Position numbers and translations under genes: made by a program. Below the pieces are notes generated by a model. That model made no database searches. It saw only the letters and a program-made list of their open reading frames with translations, and was not told where the DNA came from. From the IMG/VR virus record IMGVR_UViG_2706794662_000014: DNA of 9,660 nucleotides. One strand, given 5' to 3'. The DNA is from a virus. Lineage: Duplodnaviria > Heunggongvirae > Uroviricota > Caudoviricetes. Positions 236 through 7,513 of the stretch are shown piece by piece (within the stretch, counting starts at the first letter, position 1; the number at the start of each line of letters is the position of its first letter).

Positions 236-1318
236 TCATTTTCTCTGGCTGATCTTTACCGGATAACCATCCCGAAGATCAATTAAGTGCTCCGGTTCAG
301 AAGCAAACCATGCATAAGATCCCCACGCCAATTCTGGTATTGCCTTTTTAAAAGGCAGAGCACTTCTGTCCATAAATGCCGTAAGGAATGCAAGATTTTT
401 CTCGCTGAACCCAGCGTCAATAGCCAAATGAGTGAGAGTAACTTTTCGTTCCCTGTTTATAGGCCCATCTGTCGCAACTACTTCAGTGAAAACTACAAGC
501 ATGTCCGAACCCGTTCGGTCCTCTCCCAAATCAATCAAAATAATATCTGGAAGTGCTTTTGAGGCATCAATATTCAGCCCCAATGCTTTTGCCAATACAT
601 CATCCTGAGCAACAACTTTATTCCCGGATTCAGACAACCAGAGCACAGTTGGATTCTTAAGAAAATTAGGAGCAAAAACTTCGATGACGGCCTTAGCTAT
701 TGTACTTGACGGGCCCGGAGCTAAAGTTCTCTTCTCTCCATTTGGGAAAGTGACGACTACGGCATCAGCAGCAATCACTGCCCCTGATTTCAATAAACGC
801 AACCTAGCAAGAGCGGCTTTGTTCAAATGATTTTCTTGCCAGGAACTTATTGCACTCAGCAGCGAATCTCCTTCAAGCCCGGCATCAAAGAGTGCTGCAA
901 AAGAGCGATTCAAACTGTAACGAGGACGAGAGGATGTGGTGGGTATACCTTTACGCTCAACAATTGCATTGCAAGGTATTAGGCCATTTTTTATAGTTTC
1001 ATCACGTATTGGCTCACGCGTATTTTCCGCATACCATGCATCAGCAGGCCTTATCTTTTGTTTAGAGAAAGTCATCTTTACCCAGCTTTCTCTGGACGCA
1101 TCATCAGTAAGAGCAGCCTGCGAATCTCCCATACTTACAACCTGGCTGGGCCTTATCCATCGCCCCAGCCCCTCAACCGCACCAGCATAAAACATGACAA
1201 AAATTGTTTTTGCAGCTATTTCCCGAATTAAATATCCACGATTCTCAGTCCCTTCAGGGAAAATTAATTGTAATCTTTCCCGGATAACATTCAATGGGGG
1301 AACAACAGGCAGATTCAT
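236..1318 (-). CDS. Putative type II restriction endonuclease, PstI/BsuBI-like
   Basis: 360-codon ORF. ATG (1318-1316) overlaps the methyltransferase TGA stop (ATGA at 1315-1318), GGAG ~9-12 nt upstream. C-terminal segments LPDIILIDL...LVVFTEVVATDGPINRERK and AWGSYAWFASEPEHLI resemble my recollection of PstI-family enzymes (LPDVVVYD...LFLIEAVTSHGPISPKR). Position directly downstream of a methyltransferase. Family assignment is unverified recall. Confidence 0.6.
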   Translation of the reverse strand: MNLPVVPPLNVIRERLQLIFPEGTENRGYLIREIAAKTIFVMFYAGAVEGLGRWIRPSQVVSMGDSQAALTDDASRESWVKMTFSKQKIRPADAWYAENTREPIRDETIKNGLIPCNAIVERKGIPTTSSRPRYSLNRSFAALFDAGLEGDSLLSAISSWQENHLNKAALARLRLLKSGAVIAADAVVVTFPNGEKRTLAPGPSSTIAKAVIEVFAPNFLKNPTVLWLSESGNKVVAQDDVLAKALGLNIDASKALPDIILIDLGEDRTGSDMLVVFTEVVATDGPINRERKVTLTHLAIDAGFSEKNLAFLTAFMDRSALPFKKAIPELAWGSYAWFASEPEHLIDLRDGYPVKISQRK

Positions 1319-3147
1319 GCAATCATCACTCCATAGAAACCAGCGATAGTTCTCTCAATAATCCGTCTGTGGACGCCAGCATCAATTAACGATTGAATCT
1401 CCATCACCTGCTCCAGAGAAGGCAACGGGATTGAATTCAATTCATAGGCCGAAACAGCAACACTTCCGCTTATACACCTGAACGCCCGATCGACAACATG
1501 CGAATTAAGTAGCATATCAATAACATCAGGGCGAACCGCAGAGAACAATCCGTTTGAATATACAATATTAATATGGTTTTCAACTACTACGCCACCAGTT
1601 TCATCTATAAATCCCTGAGGTAAAATTGCCGCTAAAATCCTTCTGTCCTGTTCCTTCGATGTTGTCCGCTGAACAAGCACACATTCAGATTTTGTCACAA
1701 GGAAACCCTGTTGTGGGGTTATATCGATATAGGGAACATGATTTTTTCTGTCTGCACTAAAACGAAAACCAGCTGAAGTTATTGATTCCGCCCAGACTAA
1801 TGGGTAGCTATTTTTTCCTTTCGTCGTACGCAACTGCGACTTAAATCGATTCCAGACTAACTGACCTGTAGAGACTGAGTATCCCAGATCAGCTAAACGC
1901 GTAGACATCTGTTTTAATACATTAAGAAAACAGGCATCATCTTTAACGCGTGGCAAAAGCCACGTTGCTCCACCTTTTTCTATATCAACATTACCTATTT
2001 TCTCAATTTTTGCTTTGTTCAACCCCTTAGGGACAAGTGAGGATACCTGGGCCCGAACTTTATGTTCTCCCGCCTTGAATGCTGTCAACATTGTTTCCTG
2101 GAGAACATCGTCAAAGACCCCATCCCTGTCAGTGACGAAATCAAGGGCATACGGAGTAGTTTTTTCGGTCAAAAGGGTTCGCAGCGCGGTGAAATACTGC
2201 CCACCAAGAAAAGAAGTTGGCGTAAGAAATGCAATAACTCCTGTTTTCTCTTTAACCATGCGAACAGCTAAGTCGGTGAACAATCCATATAGATTTGCAT
2301 GACCAAATAACGAACGAGAATATTTTTCTCTCGTTTTAATATCGAGAGTGACACGTCCGTAAGGCGGATTCCCTACCACAAGATCATAACCAGAAAATTT
2401 ATCTTGCTGAAGCGCATCAGCAACAATAATTGTATCTTCAGGCAATCTACGTTTTACCTTTACACATAGTGGCATTAGTACAGATTCGAGCAATACCAAA
2501 CTCATCCAAGCCGCAAATGGATCGATTTCTATCCCCTTTAAACGACGACTGATTCTCCTCAACATCCATTCAGGGGAAGACCCCTTGTCTTTTTTTAACA
2601 TTCGAATGGCTACTGGTGCCAAAAATGCACCGCCACCACACGCAGGATCAATAACCGATGCATGAGAAAAATCAACACCAGACTTTTCAGCCAGGTCCAA
2701 GAGACGCGCTACCAAAGGTGGGGGGGTATAGTAAGCCCCCAATTCCGAACGGTAAGCGGATGGCAGCATTACCGTATAAATTGACCCAATCAGATATCCA
2801 GCGTCCTCCGCCGGAAATTGAGCAATAAGCTCACCTGTTCGTTCAGCGAGCTCGCGTGCATCACATGGAATGTCTTCTATGTAAACAGTGTGCGGTACTG
2901 CCCTCATTTTAATGCTGCTTTTTTGCTTTTTTGCAAGGGTATCCCAATATGCAGCTACGATGCTGAAGCAGTATGAGCGGGCATGCATCAACCTTGACTG
3001 CCCGGTTTTGTAATTGCCCGCATAACCTTTGGCCATGGCTTTACAAGTTTGATATCTTTCCAGATTAGAAAACTCATTATCTGTAAAAAAATCAAAATGT
3101 TGCACATTCATAATGTAAAATCCTAATGTATCAAACATGCGGGCCAT
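1315..3147 (-). CDS. N6-adenine (amino) DNA methyltransferase, gamma class, with large C-terminal target-recognition region
   Basis: 610-codon ORF. Motif X GAYYTPPPLV, motif I (AdoMet) VIDPACGGGAFL, motif IV VGNPPYG, in gamma-class order. About 330 aa follow motif IV. Start uncertain (ATG at 3147, 3138 or 3111). Confidence 0.85.
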   Translation of the reverse strand: MARMFDTLGFYIMNVQHFDFFTDNEFSNLERYQTCKAMAKGYAGNYKTGQSRLMHARSYCFSIVAAYWDTLAKKQKSSIKMRAVPHTVYIEDIPCDARELAERTGELIAQFPAEDAGYLIGSIYTVMLPSAYRSELGAYYTPPPLVARLLDLAEKSGVDFSHASVIDPACGGGAFLAPVAIRMLKKDKGSSPEWMLRRISRRLKGIEIDPFAAWMSLVLLESVLMPLCVKVKRRLPEDTIIVADALQQDKFSGYDLVVGNPPYGRVTLDIKTREKYSRSLFGHANLYGLFTDLAVRMVKEKTGVIAFLTPTSFLGGQYFTALRTLLTEKTTPYALDFVTDRDGVFDDVLQETMLTAFKAGEHKVRAQVSSLVPKGLNKAKIEKIGNVDIEKGGATWLLPRVKDDACFLNVLKQMSTRLADLGYSVSTGQLVWNRFKSQLRTTKGKNSYPLVWAESITSAGFRFSADRKNHVPYIDITPQQGFLVTKSECVLVQRTTSKEQDRRILAAILPQGFIDETGGVVVENHINIVYSNGLFSAVRPDVIDMLLNSHVVDRAFRCISGSVAVSAYELNSIPLPSLEQVMEIQSLIDAGVHRRIIERTIAGFYGVMIA

Positions 3148-4960: not shown

Positions 4961-5472
4961 TTACTTCACAACTCCCGGAAAGCTGACATTTGAACGCCAG
5001 CTATCCCAGTTAAACGTCACCCACCGACAACCGTTCATGGTCATGCGGTCCATAATCCTCTCACCAAGAAGCGTGCTCATTGCGGCATGATTCAGGTTTG
5101 TTAACATCCCGACACTGCACAGTGATGCTGTCCGGCGATCAATTATCTGGTGCAATACCACCTGCTCGTTTTTCGTCTCCCGCTGAATGCCTATTTCATC
5201 CAGGACCAGCAAATCAACCCCGCAAAGCTCCTGTAAAAATTTTTCACCGGATTTGCCGTTGTCGTAGCTGTCATGCAACACGCTCATGACATCAGACTCG
5301 GTGACGATAATCACGCTGCGCCCCTTCGCCATCAGCCGGTTACCCATCGCCGCTGCAAGGTGATTTTTCCCGGTGCCGGTTTTACCGCTGAACACAAAAT
5401 TCGTGCACCCGGTCATCAGTTCGTCAGCTATGGATTTGGCCTGGCTCAGCGCGTATTTTTGCCCGTCGTTCT
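4961..5472 (-). CDS. DnaC/IstB-like AAA+ helicase loader (phage P-position replication protein), 5' end lost in N gap
   Basis: Walker A GKTGTGKNHLAAA, Walker B LLVLDEIG, sensor-like TNLN. Lies downstream of the O-like gene. ORF-track residues upstream of the N run are artefactual. Confidence 0.8.
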
Positions 5473-5745
5473 GCACCTGATAANNNNNNNNNNNNNNNNN
5501 NNNNNNNNNNNNNNNNNNNNNNNNNNNNNNNNNNNNNNNNNNNNNNNNNNNNNNNNNNNNNNNNNNNNNNNNNNNNNNNNNNNNNNNNNNNNNNNNNNNN
5601 NNNNNNNNNNNNNNNNNNNNNNNNNNNNNNNNNNNNNNNNNNNNNNNNNNNNNNNNNNNNNNNNNNNNNNNNNNNNNNNNNNNNNNNNNNNNNNNNNNNN
5701 NNNNNNNNNNNNNNNNNNNNNNNNNNNNNNNNNNNNNNNNNNNNN
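5473..5745. other. Run of 273 N (assembly gap or masked sequence)
   Basis: Literal n characters in the sequence. It removes the 3' end of the O-like gene and the 5' end of the DnaC-like gene. Confidence 0.99.
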
Positions 5746-6722
5746 AACCAGGGGTTTTCAAAATTCCGGTCCGGCCCAAAAAACGTCGTCGCTCGCTGAA
5801 CAAATTCCGTTCCCGCTTTCCCGGTCGCCGCCAGGTATCTCGCGTAACGCCTCACACCATCCAGCATGGTCTCTGGTGGCACCCCCTCGCGCAATCTGGC
5901 CTTCCAGGCACTGAATGCGGATTTCTTCGGGTTTGCCCCGGCACGCAACGGGTATTCCCGCCAGACCTGTTCGAACACATCCGGATAATCCACTCGTCCC
6001 ACAGGCTGCCCGGTGTTTTCCGGGGCTACCCGATCGGCTTCCCGCTGAATGGCGGAATCGGCTTCAGGCTGCTGCAGTTGGAGTGATTGCTCCGGCCTTG
6101 CGGTCATCACCTGCTGCACAGCGCCCGAATCGGCTTTCAGCGCATACGCTGAATCGGCTTCCGGTGTCGAGCCTGCTGGCTGACCAGGATTGACGGTCTG
6201 AACATCCCCTGCCTGGTTCGTGGCGTTTTTTACGCCATGGACCATAGTGTTTTGATCTTCTTTATCTGTATCTTTATCTGTATCTGTCGTGACTCGTCGT
6301 GACATGTGCGTGACATTTCGTGACGCGCCGTGACAATCGCCATTTTGTTCCCGCTTTCTTTCCCTCTCTCGCTGCGCCCTCTTGCGCTCTGCAGGAGATT
6401 TTGCGGTTTGCGAAATATTGCCGTTGTCCTCTTTAAGCACCTGGCGTTTTTCCCATCCAGTGATTAAATCACCATCAAGTACCCGCCCCTGCATCGTCTG
6501 CAAAATTGAATCAATTACCTCTTCTGTCACGTCGAGCGCACTTGCCAAATCTTCTGTCGTGACATCAATGTGACCTCGCGTGACATTTCGTGACGCGCTC
6601 ACCAGGAGGTGGATATACACTGCCATCACTGTTGCAATTGGCTGCCCTGACACCCTGGCAATTGTTCGCCACTTAGGGTCATTTGGCATGTCATGCCATA
6701 ATCTGAGCCAGGCGTTAGCCAT
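5746..6722 (-). CDS. Phage replication initiation protein, O-like (YdaU-like), 3' end lost in N gap
   Basis: ATG 6722 (MANAWLRLW...) with RBS AGAGGTGA preferred over ORF-track GTG 6728. N-terminal HTH-like region, low-complexity acidic/Q-rich linker, C-terminal FEQVWREYP...KKSAFSAWKARL. Position between cII-position gene and DnaC-like loader; contains iteron arrays. Confidence 0.65.
6259..6334. repeat. Iteron array plus AT-rich 12-bp tandem repeat: candidate replication origin inside the O-like gene
   Basis: CGTGAC cores at 6288, 6298, 6309, 6319, 6329 (spacing 10-11 bp), preceded by TCTTTATCTGTA x2 (6259-6282). Confidence 0.6.
6523..6598. repeat. Second iteron-like cluster, in the N-terminal coding region of the O-like gene
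   Basis: CGTGAC at 6558, 6579, 6589; TGTGAC at 6569; inverted GTCACG at 6526-6531. The 21-mer GCGTGACATTTCGTGACGCGC at 6578-6598 is identical to 6308-6328. Confidence 0.55.
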
Positions 6723-6793: not shown

Positions 6794-7219
6794 TCAATGT
6801 ACTGCCACAGCATTTCCTGCCGGGCCACCACGGTTCATCTGATTGAAACCGGCGATTGCCACTGCGACAAAATCATCAGCGTCTCTCACCAGTCGTTCAT
6901 GCGTCTCCACCAGTTCCCGAAAATAAGCTGAACTGTGGCTGCGCATTCGAGCCACCAGCGGAGGTGGCATTGCCCTTTCGATCGCAGGTAACAACGCCTG
7001 AATTTTTTCAACAGCGTCAGGGGTGTCTTTATCCAGCCAACGGAAAATCTTTTGGGTGTTGAGATAAAGCGTGTTGTGCTTGCTGTCGTTATGCAGAACC
7101 GGAAACGTCATTCCCAGTTCGAAATAAACCCTGGTTATTTCAGCTGCCGGAACTTTTTCACCGTCCGGATGCGCCCAGGCTTTCATCGCCATGCGGATGT
7201 GTTCATGCTTGATTTTCAT
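6794..7219 (-). CDS. cII-position protein, possibly YdaT-like
   Basis: 141-codon ORF, ATG 7219-7217 overlapping the Cro-like stop (ATGA). Sits between cro-like and O-like genes. YdaT assignment is from synteny and vague recall only. Confidence 0.6.
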   Translation of the reverse strand: MKIKHEHIRMAMKAWAHPDGEKVPAAEITRVYFELGMTFPVLHNDSKHNTLYLNTQKIFRWLDKDTPDAVEKIQALLPAIERAMPPPLVARMRSHSSAYFRELVETHERLVRDADDFVAVAIAGFNQMNRGGPAGNAVAVH

Positions 7220-7479
7220 GAATCAACCCCCGCCGATGGTTGTGTGTTAGCCTGAAACTCAGCAGGCAAGCCGTCAGTTGGGTTGGGGTAGGTTTTACTG
7301 TCAATCTCATGTGGGGTCACCACCCATCCCGTTGCTTCACACCAACGTAATATTTTTTCTCCTGTAAGTTTTGCACGCCCCGTTATAACGTGGCTGACCA
7401 TCCCTTGGGATGCGCCAACAATCTCAGCAAATGAACTCTGGGTTATATGAAAATGATGCAAATATTCTCCAAGATTCAT
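7216..7479 (-). CDS. Cro-like HTH transcriptional regulator
   Basis: ORF track starts at TTG 7506; first ATG at 7479 (MNLGEYLHH...). HTH segment SSFAEIVGASQGMVSHVITGRAKL. Divergent from the repressor gene, downstream of the PR-like promoter. Confidence 0.7.
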   Translation of the reverse strand: MNLGEYLHHFHITQSSFAEIVGASQGMVSHVITGRAKLTGEKILRWCEATGWVVTPHEIDSKTYPNPTDGLPAEFQANTQPSAGVDS

Positions 7480-7513
7480 AATCCGCCCTATGTGATGTGT
7501 TACCAATGCATAA

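Follow-up and report, generated by a model that had tools for sequence, protein, structure and literature searches.

An iteron-like array within the folded-domain codons of a prophage replication initiator gene is a probable second binding site for the initiator

We analysed a 9,660-nucleotide (nt) stretch of viral DNA (Caudoviricetes; IMG/VR record IMGVR_UViG_2706794662_000014), called the window throughout. The window contains, on its minus strand, a gene for a replication initiator of the replisome-organizer type, and two arrays of a short repeat lie inside this gene. One array (cluster 1) is in the codons of a disordered linker and looks like part of the core origin. The other (cluster 2) is about 230 base pairs (bp) upstream, in codons of the folded N-terminal domain. 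We found that cluster 2 is probably a selected array of binding sites for the initiator. As judged by sequence comparison, the repeats of cluster 2 are under selection at the DNA level, they co-vary with those of cluster 1, and cluster 2 is accessory to the origin. The gene and its repeats are as follows.

Positions 5746-6722, minus strand: replication initiator gene, replisome-organizer type; the 5' 977 nt are present and the 3' end is masked by a run of N.
Positions 6553-6598: cluster 2 (N-terminal array), four direct iterons that read GTCAC(G/A) on the coding strand; they fall in the codons for amino acids 43-55 (A-SRNVTRGHIDVT), where helix 29-45 of the winged-helix domain ends and loop 46-55 follows.
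Positions 6525-6531: single inverted iteron, TGTCACG on the plus strand, with its centre 33 bp from that of the nearest direct iteron; it falls in the codons for D64-V65-T66, the turn between helices 56-63 and 67-77.
Positions 6283-6338: cluster 1 (linker array), five direct iterons in the disordered linker downstream of the basic helix.
Positions 6308-6328: copy 1 of an exact 21-bp repeat, comprising two iterons and the spacer between them.
Positions 6578-6598: copy 2 of the exact 21-bp repeat.

We found that the two arrays share a long exact match. The 21-mer GCGTGACATTTCGTGACGCGC occurs exactly twice in the window, at 6308-6328 and 6578-6598, with an offset of 270 bp. The flanking base differs on both sides, and the match is not extendable. 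Allowing up to three mismatches still gave two matches (expected 0.01; 0 of 200 shuffles). Because the offset is a multiple of three, both copies are in the same reading frame.

The repeated core is also concentrated in these arrays. CGTGAC was found 9 times in the 9,660 bases (expected 3.2 +/- 1.9), a count reached in none of 200 shuffles, and all nine copies are confined to the two arrays within the one minus-strand gene. In cluster 1, CGTGAC starts at 6288, 6298, 6309, 6319, and 6329 (steps of 10, 11, 10, and 10 bp). Cluster 2 has CGTGAC at 6558, 6579, and 6589 and TGTGAC at 6569 (steps of 11, 10, and 10 bp), plus one inverted core copy at 6526-6531. On the coding strand, GTCAC starts at nt 129, 139, 149, and 160 of the coding sequence in cluster 2 and at nt 389, 399, 409, 420, and 430 in cluster 1. 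The repeat unit is 10-11 bp, with an asymmetric core of 6-7 bp, in a single orientation except for the one inverted copy. That inverted copy is a genuine copy of the iteron: TGTCACGTCGAG, at 6525-6536, is complementary to the cluster 1 iteron at 6293-6304 in 11 of 12 bases. The window thus has what is expected of an iteron-type origin, helically phased repeat copies beside an AT-rich element (below).

These measurements agree with the original prediction for this DNA, which had described the exact 21-bp repeat with its positions and offset, additional CGTGAC and TGTGAC cores at 10-11 bp spacing with an inverted core at 6526-6531, and repeated peptides encoded by both arrays. The translated peptides are SRNVTRGHIDVTT for cluster 2 and SRNVTHMSRRVTT for cluster 1, both in the minus-strand open reading frame that begins at the ATG at 6722.

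Our comparisons strongly support the notion that both arrays are kept as DNA sites and not as a peptide repeat. The cores occupy all three reading frames, and GTCAC is translated as S-R, V-T, G-H, and V-T. In protein alignments, the invariant residues among positions 43-66 (S44, V47, T48, G50, H51, V54, and T55) are exactly those encoded by the cores.

The codons used for these residues were almost constant. We compared 19 genomes, each from a different species, with G+C contents of 34-69%, roughly 60-70% amino acid identity, and no insertions or deletions in the first 120 codons. In this set, which was chosen for GTCAC at two positions (the codons listed here are outside that selection except for the first two bases of T48 and T55), the cluster 2 core codons were GCG for A43 (17/19), TCA for S44 (18/19), ACG for T48 (19/19), GGT for G50 (19/19), CAC for H51 (18/18), and ACG for T55 (18/19). 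Other invariant residues in the same genomes were encoded by 2-6 codons each, and R49, which lies between two cores, was encoded by 4. The mean fraction of the most frequent codon was 0.94 in the cores versus 0.50 outside them (Mann-Whitney p = 4e-6).

The two arrays also change together at synonymous positions. (Numbers beginning with L are our labels for the relative loci that were compared; relatives from viral contigs were gathered with a query alignment headed by a divergent member.) L027 (Enterobacter) and L029 (Erwinia) encode identical V-T dipeptides, as GTA-ACG in L027 and as GTC-ACG in L029, in both arrays. The inverted copy differs correspondingly, with GTT-AC in L027 versus GTG-AC in L029. 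In relatives with a GTGAC core, the one core word is translated as V-T, C-D, G-D, R-D, and S-D.

Another repeat in the same gene has different properties. ATCGGCTT occurs four times, at 6033, 6057, 6129, and 6153 (6033-6160 in the window; expected 0.33), in steps of 24, 72, and 24 nt. All four copies are in a single frame and encode EADS or (E/K)ADS repeats in the C-terminal half of the protein. By sequence, these copies behave like a true peptide repeat, unlike the iterons.

We found that within each gene the loop-coding array carries the same core as the linker array, whatever that core is. There are five core classes in all. In addition to GTCACG, these are GTAACG (L027, L035, and L037), CGAACG (L032, L034, L036, and L043), GCAACG (Ralstonia phage Hennie and relatives), and GTGACG (L137-L152). 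Switches between lineages affect both arrays, sometimes only synonymously, and a single host genus, Pseudomonas, holds different core classes. Thus, the repeats co-vary with the cognate initiator, as is expected of sequences that determine replicon specificity, and the initiator gene is the only one that consistently accompanies the arrays in different hosts and gene neighbourhoods.

The two-array layout is common among relatives. In an automated screen, a periodic 5-mer was found in the linker-coding region of 103 of 110 non-redundant relatives, including relatives without cluster 2. Approximately 66 of these 103 had at least two forward copies of their own linker 5-mer in the approximately 100-nt region encoding the loop; the chance of at least two loop copies for a given 5-mer is, roughly, 0.005. 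The 5-mer was chosen wrongly for a few loci (L017, L020, L138, and L200), so the counts for the 103 relatives are approximate and, if anything, understate the two-array state. Among complete Escherichia coli genomes, 3069 of 5426 matched a 1.5-kb query, and 1786 hold sequence spanning both arrays; 5452 of the matching places were chromosomal and 13 were on plasmids. In the complete 46-kb genome of the coliphage Tritos, at least three cores within 60 nt were found only at these two arrays.

The layout of cluster 2 is conserved in detail, and its length varies in discrete steps. In both the GTCAC and GCAAC classes, there are four direct copies at nt 129-160 of the coding sequence and one inverted copy at nt 193-195, and most GTCAC-class homologs have the inverted core at nt 193. 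Arrays differ in length by 21 bp, equal to two iterons or seven amino acids (L002, L006, and L199). In the GTGAC class (L140 and L147; approximately nt 120-290), the N-terminal array has 10-13 cores, and the loop is 23-26 residues longer. In this class, TGTGAC (read as C-D) is also scattered into the part of the gene that encodes the helix-turn-helix.

The original prediction had offered two alternatives: a duplicated DNA-binding peptide segment in the initiator, or a DNA repeat held as a second binding cluster despite the coding constraint. It had proposed an alignment of homologs as the way to refute a DNA site. In that alignment the nucleotide repeat is kept, and codons switch together beneath the same peptide (L027 versus L029). 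Based on the reading frames, the fixed synonymous sites, and the joint codon switches, we reject the first alternative. The frames, the synonymous sites, the joint changes of cores, and the 21-bp steps all favour the second.

A two-array layout is also found with a different N-terminal domain. L003 (2413-3528, minus strand) and L210-L289 have an N-domain (MRDYAKVSPRFW..., PHROG 1701) that is unrelated to that of the window or highly divergent from it; the C-terminal module is the same. L003 is without any GTCAC. It has its own repeat, AAGGGGCT, at nt 185 and 196 of the coding sequence, in the part encoding the helix-turn-helix, and at nt 441, 452, and 463, in the linker. These arrays have 11-bp spacing, are 256 bp apart, and are kept down to 78% identity. 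More than one domain family therefore has the two-array layout.

Two relatives, L039 (Serratia) and L041 (Pantoea), have an insertion right after the winged helix (...YVYYVATTDGDVVRVGISRNPWAR...), which from reading the sequence we presume may be of the GIY-YIG type. ACTACG/CGTAGT repeats at this place replace the usual linker array, and there is no N-terminal array.

We next consider which part of the initiator would read the repeats. One more feature is needed.

Positions 6363-6392, minus strand: codons 111-120 (AERKRAQRER), within helix 110-127; candidate iteron-reading element.

The helix contains the motif R113-K114-R115-A116-Q117-R118 (6369-6389) in the window, and among loci L005-L209 it has the general form R-X1-[KR]-x-X4-[RK]. 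We found that the residues at X1 and X4 follow the core class, with counts that take no account of kinship: K and Q (RKRxQR) in 55 of 61 GTCAC loci, T and Y or W (RTRx(Y/W)R) in 9 of 9 GTGAC loci, A and W (RA(K/R)xWR) in 5 of 5 CGAAC loci, and S at X1 (RS...) in 12 of 12 GCAAC loci. The association holds in both major clades, with or without cluster 2. We suggest that the basic helix RKRxQR is likely the reader of the repeats. The iteron-encoded loop was considered as a reader and is disfavoured: some relatives with GTCAC linker iterons are without this loop, which speaks against the loop as the recognition element, and the core class tracks the basic helix.

Cluster 1 and the sequence beside it look like a core origin. 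Two features lie next to the array.

Positions 6240-6287: AT-rich tract, putative DNA-unwinding element; 30% G+C at 6240-6279; encodes the low-complexity linker TDTDKDTDKED.
Positions 6214-6244: inverted repeat (palindrome) with a 13-bp stem and a 5-nt loop, just past the AT-rich tract.

The G+C minimum of the region falls directly after the linker array, and the AT-rich tract includes a tandem repeat of 2 x 12 bp (TCTTTATCTGTA) at 6259-6282. Relatives have (GATAAA)n, (CAGATA)n, or AT runs immediately after their linker arrays. The palindrome has a predicted DNA folding energy of -10.9 kcal/mol (z = -4.8), and none of 200 shuffled sequences was equally stable. It is kept in relatives that share the C-terminal module, and its outer stem is kept in L003. 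Apart from the palindrome, a scan for promoters and terminators gave nothing above chance. DnaA boxes near the origin were not enriched (24 matches versus 21 expected).

Homologs without cluster 2 keep the linker array, which indicates that the linker array and AT-rich tract would be the core origin and cluster 2 an accessory. Some 230 bp separate cluster 2 from the origin array, and cluster 2 lacks an AT-rich tract. It has the character of a second array outside a minimal origin, with its dispensability judged by comparison: many relatives with GTCAC, GCAAC, GTGAC, or AACGC linker arrays have, in place of the iteron-encoded loop, an unrelated loop of the same length, ASxxxxRGxxGxxD.

The origin oriJ of the Rac prophage of E. 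coli K-12 was considered as a counterpart and rejected, as its YdaU is a DUF1376 protein with a different N-domain; the oriJ literature is therefore not directly applicable. ydaU itself is only a weak analogue, with TGTTCAA at nt 149, 393, and 426 of its coding sequence.

Our results are most consistent with the following model. Both clusters would be iterons for the initiator encoded by the same gene, with the coding-strand core GTCACG present once per helical turn. The core origin would consist of the linker array (6283-6338) together with the AT-rich tract (6240-6287) and the palindrome (6214-6244). Cluster 2 (6553-6598) and the inverted copy (6525-6531) would make up an accessory array approximately 230 bp upstream, written in the codons of a permissive surface loop. 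One initiator protein would bind per helical turn, with the basic helix (RKRxQR, amino acids 113-118) probably reading the core and oligomerization probably occurring through the winged helix, which resembles the N-terminal domain of DnaD. Protein at the two arrays would be brought together, and the intervening approximately 230 bp would loop or wrap. The larger, stabilized initiation complex would then melt the AT-rich tract, after which the C-terminal domain would recruit the DnaC-like loader encoded next door and the host DnaB.

The effect of such a loop is less certain than binding itself. A stimulatory loop that helps the AT-rich tract to open is a possibility to which we give somewhat less than even weight. 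We are similarly tentative about a broader proposal: that a second array of the initiator's sites has arisen repeatedly in this superfamily within the codons of the folded N-terminal domain, in several core classes and at least two types of N-domain, and forms a distinct half of a bipartite origin in which the approximately 230-bp loop sets efficiency, directionality, or auto-limitation.

Several observations weigh against cluster 2 being a selected initiator-binding array. Approximately 30 of the 103 relatives have zero copies in the N-terminal region, so cluster 2 is not needed for origin function generally. The full layout of 4 + 5 cores is present in 74 of 80 close E. coli relatives; the other 6 have lost one core. 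Single-nucleotide polymorphisms in these 80 relatives are not significantly depleted from the cores (1 of 20 variable sites, in cores that make up 60 of 440 nt), as the number of variable sites is too small. Conservation of helical phase from one array to the other is only suggestive, being moderate (R of 0.60-0.70) and confounded by shared ancestry, and kinship likewise enters the counts that link helix motif to core class. Conversion or duplication between the arrays could maintain cluster 2 without a function of its own. Finally, a literature search found no binding, footprinting, chromatin immunoprecipitation, or replication study of this initiator family.

Of the alternatives, the most serious is that cluster 2 binds the initiator but serves to restrain or regulate it. 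We consider this fairly unlikely. It shares the DNA-level evidence with the reading we prefer. Restraint might be exerted by looping or handcuffing that blocks melting, by titration of the initiator, or by a block to RNA polymerase that would auto-limit the initiator, the loader, and transcription into the origin. Like control iterons, cluster 2 is outside the minimal origin and dispensable in approximately one third of relatives. It is approximately 125 bp into the coding sequence of the initiator itself, upstream of the loader gene. A lone inverted copy is 33 bp away from its last direct copy, and plasmid Rep proteins usually repress their own genes through operators made of inverted iteron halves. 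Looping between two iteron arrays was reportedly described as negative control in plasmids by Zzaman and Bastia in 2005, as cited in PMC5043065. A restraining cluster 2 would resemble incA of P1, incC of F, or oriR of phage SPP1 acting as a barrier, and the second array bound by the SPP1 initiator G38P has been proposed to stall forks (PMC6316719). However, the linker array would by itself already be a roadblock to transcription, and copy-number control matters little for elements that are overwhelmingly chromosomal prophages.

It is improbable that cluster 2 is a functionless by-product of conversion, slippage, or duplication from the linker array into a tolerant loop. Sequence does appear to have been copied between arrays on occasion, as array-to-array identities of 17-21 bp, spacers included, are found in 9 loci of several core classes in addition to the window. 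The loop is variable in length and sequence, and both its lack of an array in the approximately 30 relatives and the absence of significant depletion of polymorphisms in the cores would fit a by-product. In most lineages, however, what the two arrays share is confined to the 6-8-bp cores, with shared strings of at most 7-11 nt, which is background level. The cores are nevertheless fixed where other synonymous sites are saturated, which points to selection on the cores and not to recent copying alone. The detailed layout of four direct copies and one inverted copy, conserved in two core classes, and its appearance at a different structural position in the second N-domain family also argue against a by-product. 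A query for the junction that an in-frame 270-bp deletion between the 21-mers would leave found no such deletion; the matches listed all have the normal arrangement, spanning approximately 378 nt as two pieces. Both arrays are present in each of the 80 viral loci, with no deletion variant among them.

We think it very unlikely that the repeats are sites for another factor, such as a host protein or a phage regulator (Cro, CII, or a YdaT-like protein). The identity of the binder is deduced, and YdaT-family and cro-like genes are directly upstream, at 6794-7506. But the arrays stay with the N-terminal part of the initiator when C-terminal domains and neighbouring genes are exchanged, the core class differs within one host genus and follows the basic-helix residues of the initiator, and DnaA boxes are at the number expected by chance. 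Least credible is a duplication at the protein level, in which an SRNVT or VT peptide would be needed in both the DNA-binding domain and the linker and the DNA likeness would be secondary: the 21-mers do share a frame and encode SRNVT twice, and seven residues are invariant, but those residues coincide with cores read as S-R, V-T, and G-H, their codons are fixed where 2-6 are permitted, L027 and L029 switch codons jointly in both arrays beneath a constant peptide, the GTGAC core is read as five dipeptides, relatives with GTCAC linker iterons and no cluster 2 carry the unrelated ASxxxxRGxxGxxD loop, and the true peptide repeat EADS (ATCGGCTT) stays in one frame.

The arrangement of cluster 1 resembles that of the phage lambda ori and of oriL of SPP1. 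Origins inside initiator genes are textbook knowledge (lambda O and SPP1 gene 38). The lambda origin, like the one proposed here, separates an N-terminal part of the initiator gene that is specific for the origin from a C-terminal part that interacts with the loader, and in lambda, too, the N-terminal part and the iterons move together as a specificity module. The lambda ori also has an inverted repeat after its AT-rich tract, and the order of iterons, AT-rich tract, and palindrome recalls the window. The initiator-site array of lambda is beside an AT-rich tract of approximately 40 bp (PMC5043065); similarly, cluster 1 is within the initiator open reading frame and is followed by the 30% G+C tract. 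The O proteins of Stx phages with 6 iterons are 13 amino acids longer (PMC7466680). Extra iterons therefore lengthen the initiator there, as they do here, where two iterons add seven amino acids.

The origin proposed here also differs from that of lambda, and its initiator is no homolog of lambda O (below). In lambda, each iteron is a 19-bp near-perfect inverted repeat to which a dimer binds (PMC5043065), whereas the repeats here are direct, with 6-7-bp cores every 10-11 bp, and of the plasmid kind. Lambda has one contiguous array, whereas here a second array is found approximately 230 bp upstream, inside the codons of a folded domain. The original prediction had called a bipartite layout unusual for lambdoid origins. 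The difference from lambda stands, but the layout is common in this initiator family (approximately 66 of 103 relatives, and approximately one third of complete E. coli genomes).

The SPP1 initiator G38P is of the replisome-organizer type, as the initiator in the window appears to be. Its oriL is within gene 38, where direct repeats (AB boxes) are beside an AT-rich unwinding element, and G38P also binds these repeats at another site, where they form a second array (PMC6316719, PMC5737612). The SPP1 oriR is intergenic, approximately 13 kb away on the circular map, and has its own AT-rich region. Cluster 2 is unlike oriR in being approximately 230 bp from the first array, in the same gene, and without its own AT-rich tract. 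We found no third, distant array comparable to oriR in the 46-kb Tritos genome.

Plasmids with iterons provide another comparison. The arrays of P1 (incC/incA), F (ori2/incC), and RK2 are alike in having short direct phased repeats and two arrays tied to the rep gene. In P1 and F, one array is outside the minimal origin and dispensable for initiation; incA of P1 and incC of F are non-coding and flank the rep gene. Unlike in these plasmids, both arrays here are translated, and the elements are prophages. The Rep proteins of plasmids have two winged helices and are not related to the initiator in the window. The general arrangement in such plasmids is of short direct repeats phased with the helix beside an AT-rich region (PMC5043065).

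Phage P4 also differs from the window, in that its alpha protein is unrelated to this initiator and in that the second array here is absent from approximately one third of relatives. The P4 origin is bipartite (ori and crr), with two clusters of the same repeat that are bound by the initiator and cooperate at a distance. The P4 clusters are approximately 4.5 kb apart, alpha is a primase-helicase, and crr is required. Our literature search found no description of a second array in the coding sequence of an initiator's folded domain, nor of the origin of this family, although such an absence is no proof of novelty.

The new aspect of this arrangement would be the position of the second array, within the codons of a structured domain, where the DNA code appears to override the protein code. 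If the model is correct, the DNA that is bound dictates a stretch of the protein that binds it: invariant residues would be translated iterons, and the loop would gain seven amino acids for every two sites. Residues that seem invariant and essential may thus be translated binding sites, which calls for caution in drawing conclusions about proteins from conservation. The system is tractable. Each core of cluster 2 can be removed by a synonymous change, separating its role in DNA from its role in protein, and there are natural variants with 0, 4, 6, or at least 10 sites. The correspondence between the basic-helix motif and core class is a candidate recognition code. The arrays occur in approximately one third of the complete genomes of E. 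coli, and relatives are found in genera that include Pseudomonas, Bordetella, and Ralstonia; any such rules would therefore apply widely to prophage replication and to the annotation of origins.

The initiator is incomplete in the window. A run of 262 N at 5484-5745 hides the initiator gene at its 3' end and the loader gene at its 5' end; gene lengths taken from relatives do not sum exactly, so the run of N may differ from the true length of the gap. In relatives L050-L054, the N-terminal 160 amino acids are identical to those in the window, and the complete proteins have 354-356 amino acids. A full-length relative matched PHROG 3729, 'replication initiation protein' (E = 5e-255). Relatives are labelled 'phage replisome organizer' in RefSeq, and close relatives also 'replication protein'.

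The N-terminal domain is a winged helix of the type found at the N-terminus of DnaD. In the AlphaFold2 model, a confidently predicted winged helix (residues 1-98) is followed by a basic helix (110-127) and then a disordered linker. A Pfam search with the 325-amino-acid product gave no family at E <= 0.01. Phage_rep_org_N (PF09681) scored 15.9 bits, below its cut-off of 23.3 (E = 0.013), with residues 5-123 aligned to profile positions 1-119 of 121. Weak PHROG matches were to 'replisome organizer' (E = 6e-6 and 2e-4) and 'DnaD-like helicase loader'. Phage_rep_O was not matched even at E <= 10, which rules out a homolog of lambda O and corrects the name 'O-like protein' in the original prediction. 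The N-terminal domain family had 826 matches, in Enterobacteria, Pseudomonas, Bordetella, Chromobacterium, and others.

The genes around the initiator are those of a prophage early region. The gene directly downstream encodes a helicase loader.

Positions 4961-5483, minus strand: DnaC/IstB-like AAA+ helicase-loader gene (Pfam IstB_IS21, E = 5e-18).

In relatives, the initiator gene is followed by a gene for replication protein P or for DnaB helicase. Upstream of the initiator in the sense of transcription are a gene for a cro-like helix-turn-helix protein and the YdaT-family gene (together 6794-7506), and beyond these is a divergent gene for a cI-like repressor. Close relatives sharing 93-95% identity comprise inducible coliphages (Tritos and Evi, for example) as well as prophages of E. 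coli.

The initiator gene itself is mosaic. A junction is found at approximately 6250-6272, at the AT-rich tract encoding DK repeats. At least two other C-terminal modules, including a DnaT-like one in L002, are also found fused to the N-domain with both arrays, and the C-terminal module of the window is joined to the different N-domain in L003. These junctions are consistent with exchange of an origin-specificity module as a unit.

Also in the early region (236-3147, minus strand) is a restriction-modification pair, comprising a BsuBI/PstI-type endonuclease (236-1318) and an Eco57I/N6-adenine methylase-like protein (1315-3147, minus strand). Upstream of this pair are a DUF977 gene, a DUF1627 gene, and an open reading frame encoding a zinc ribbon.

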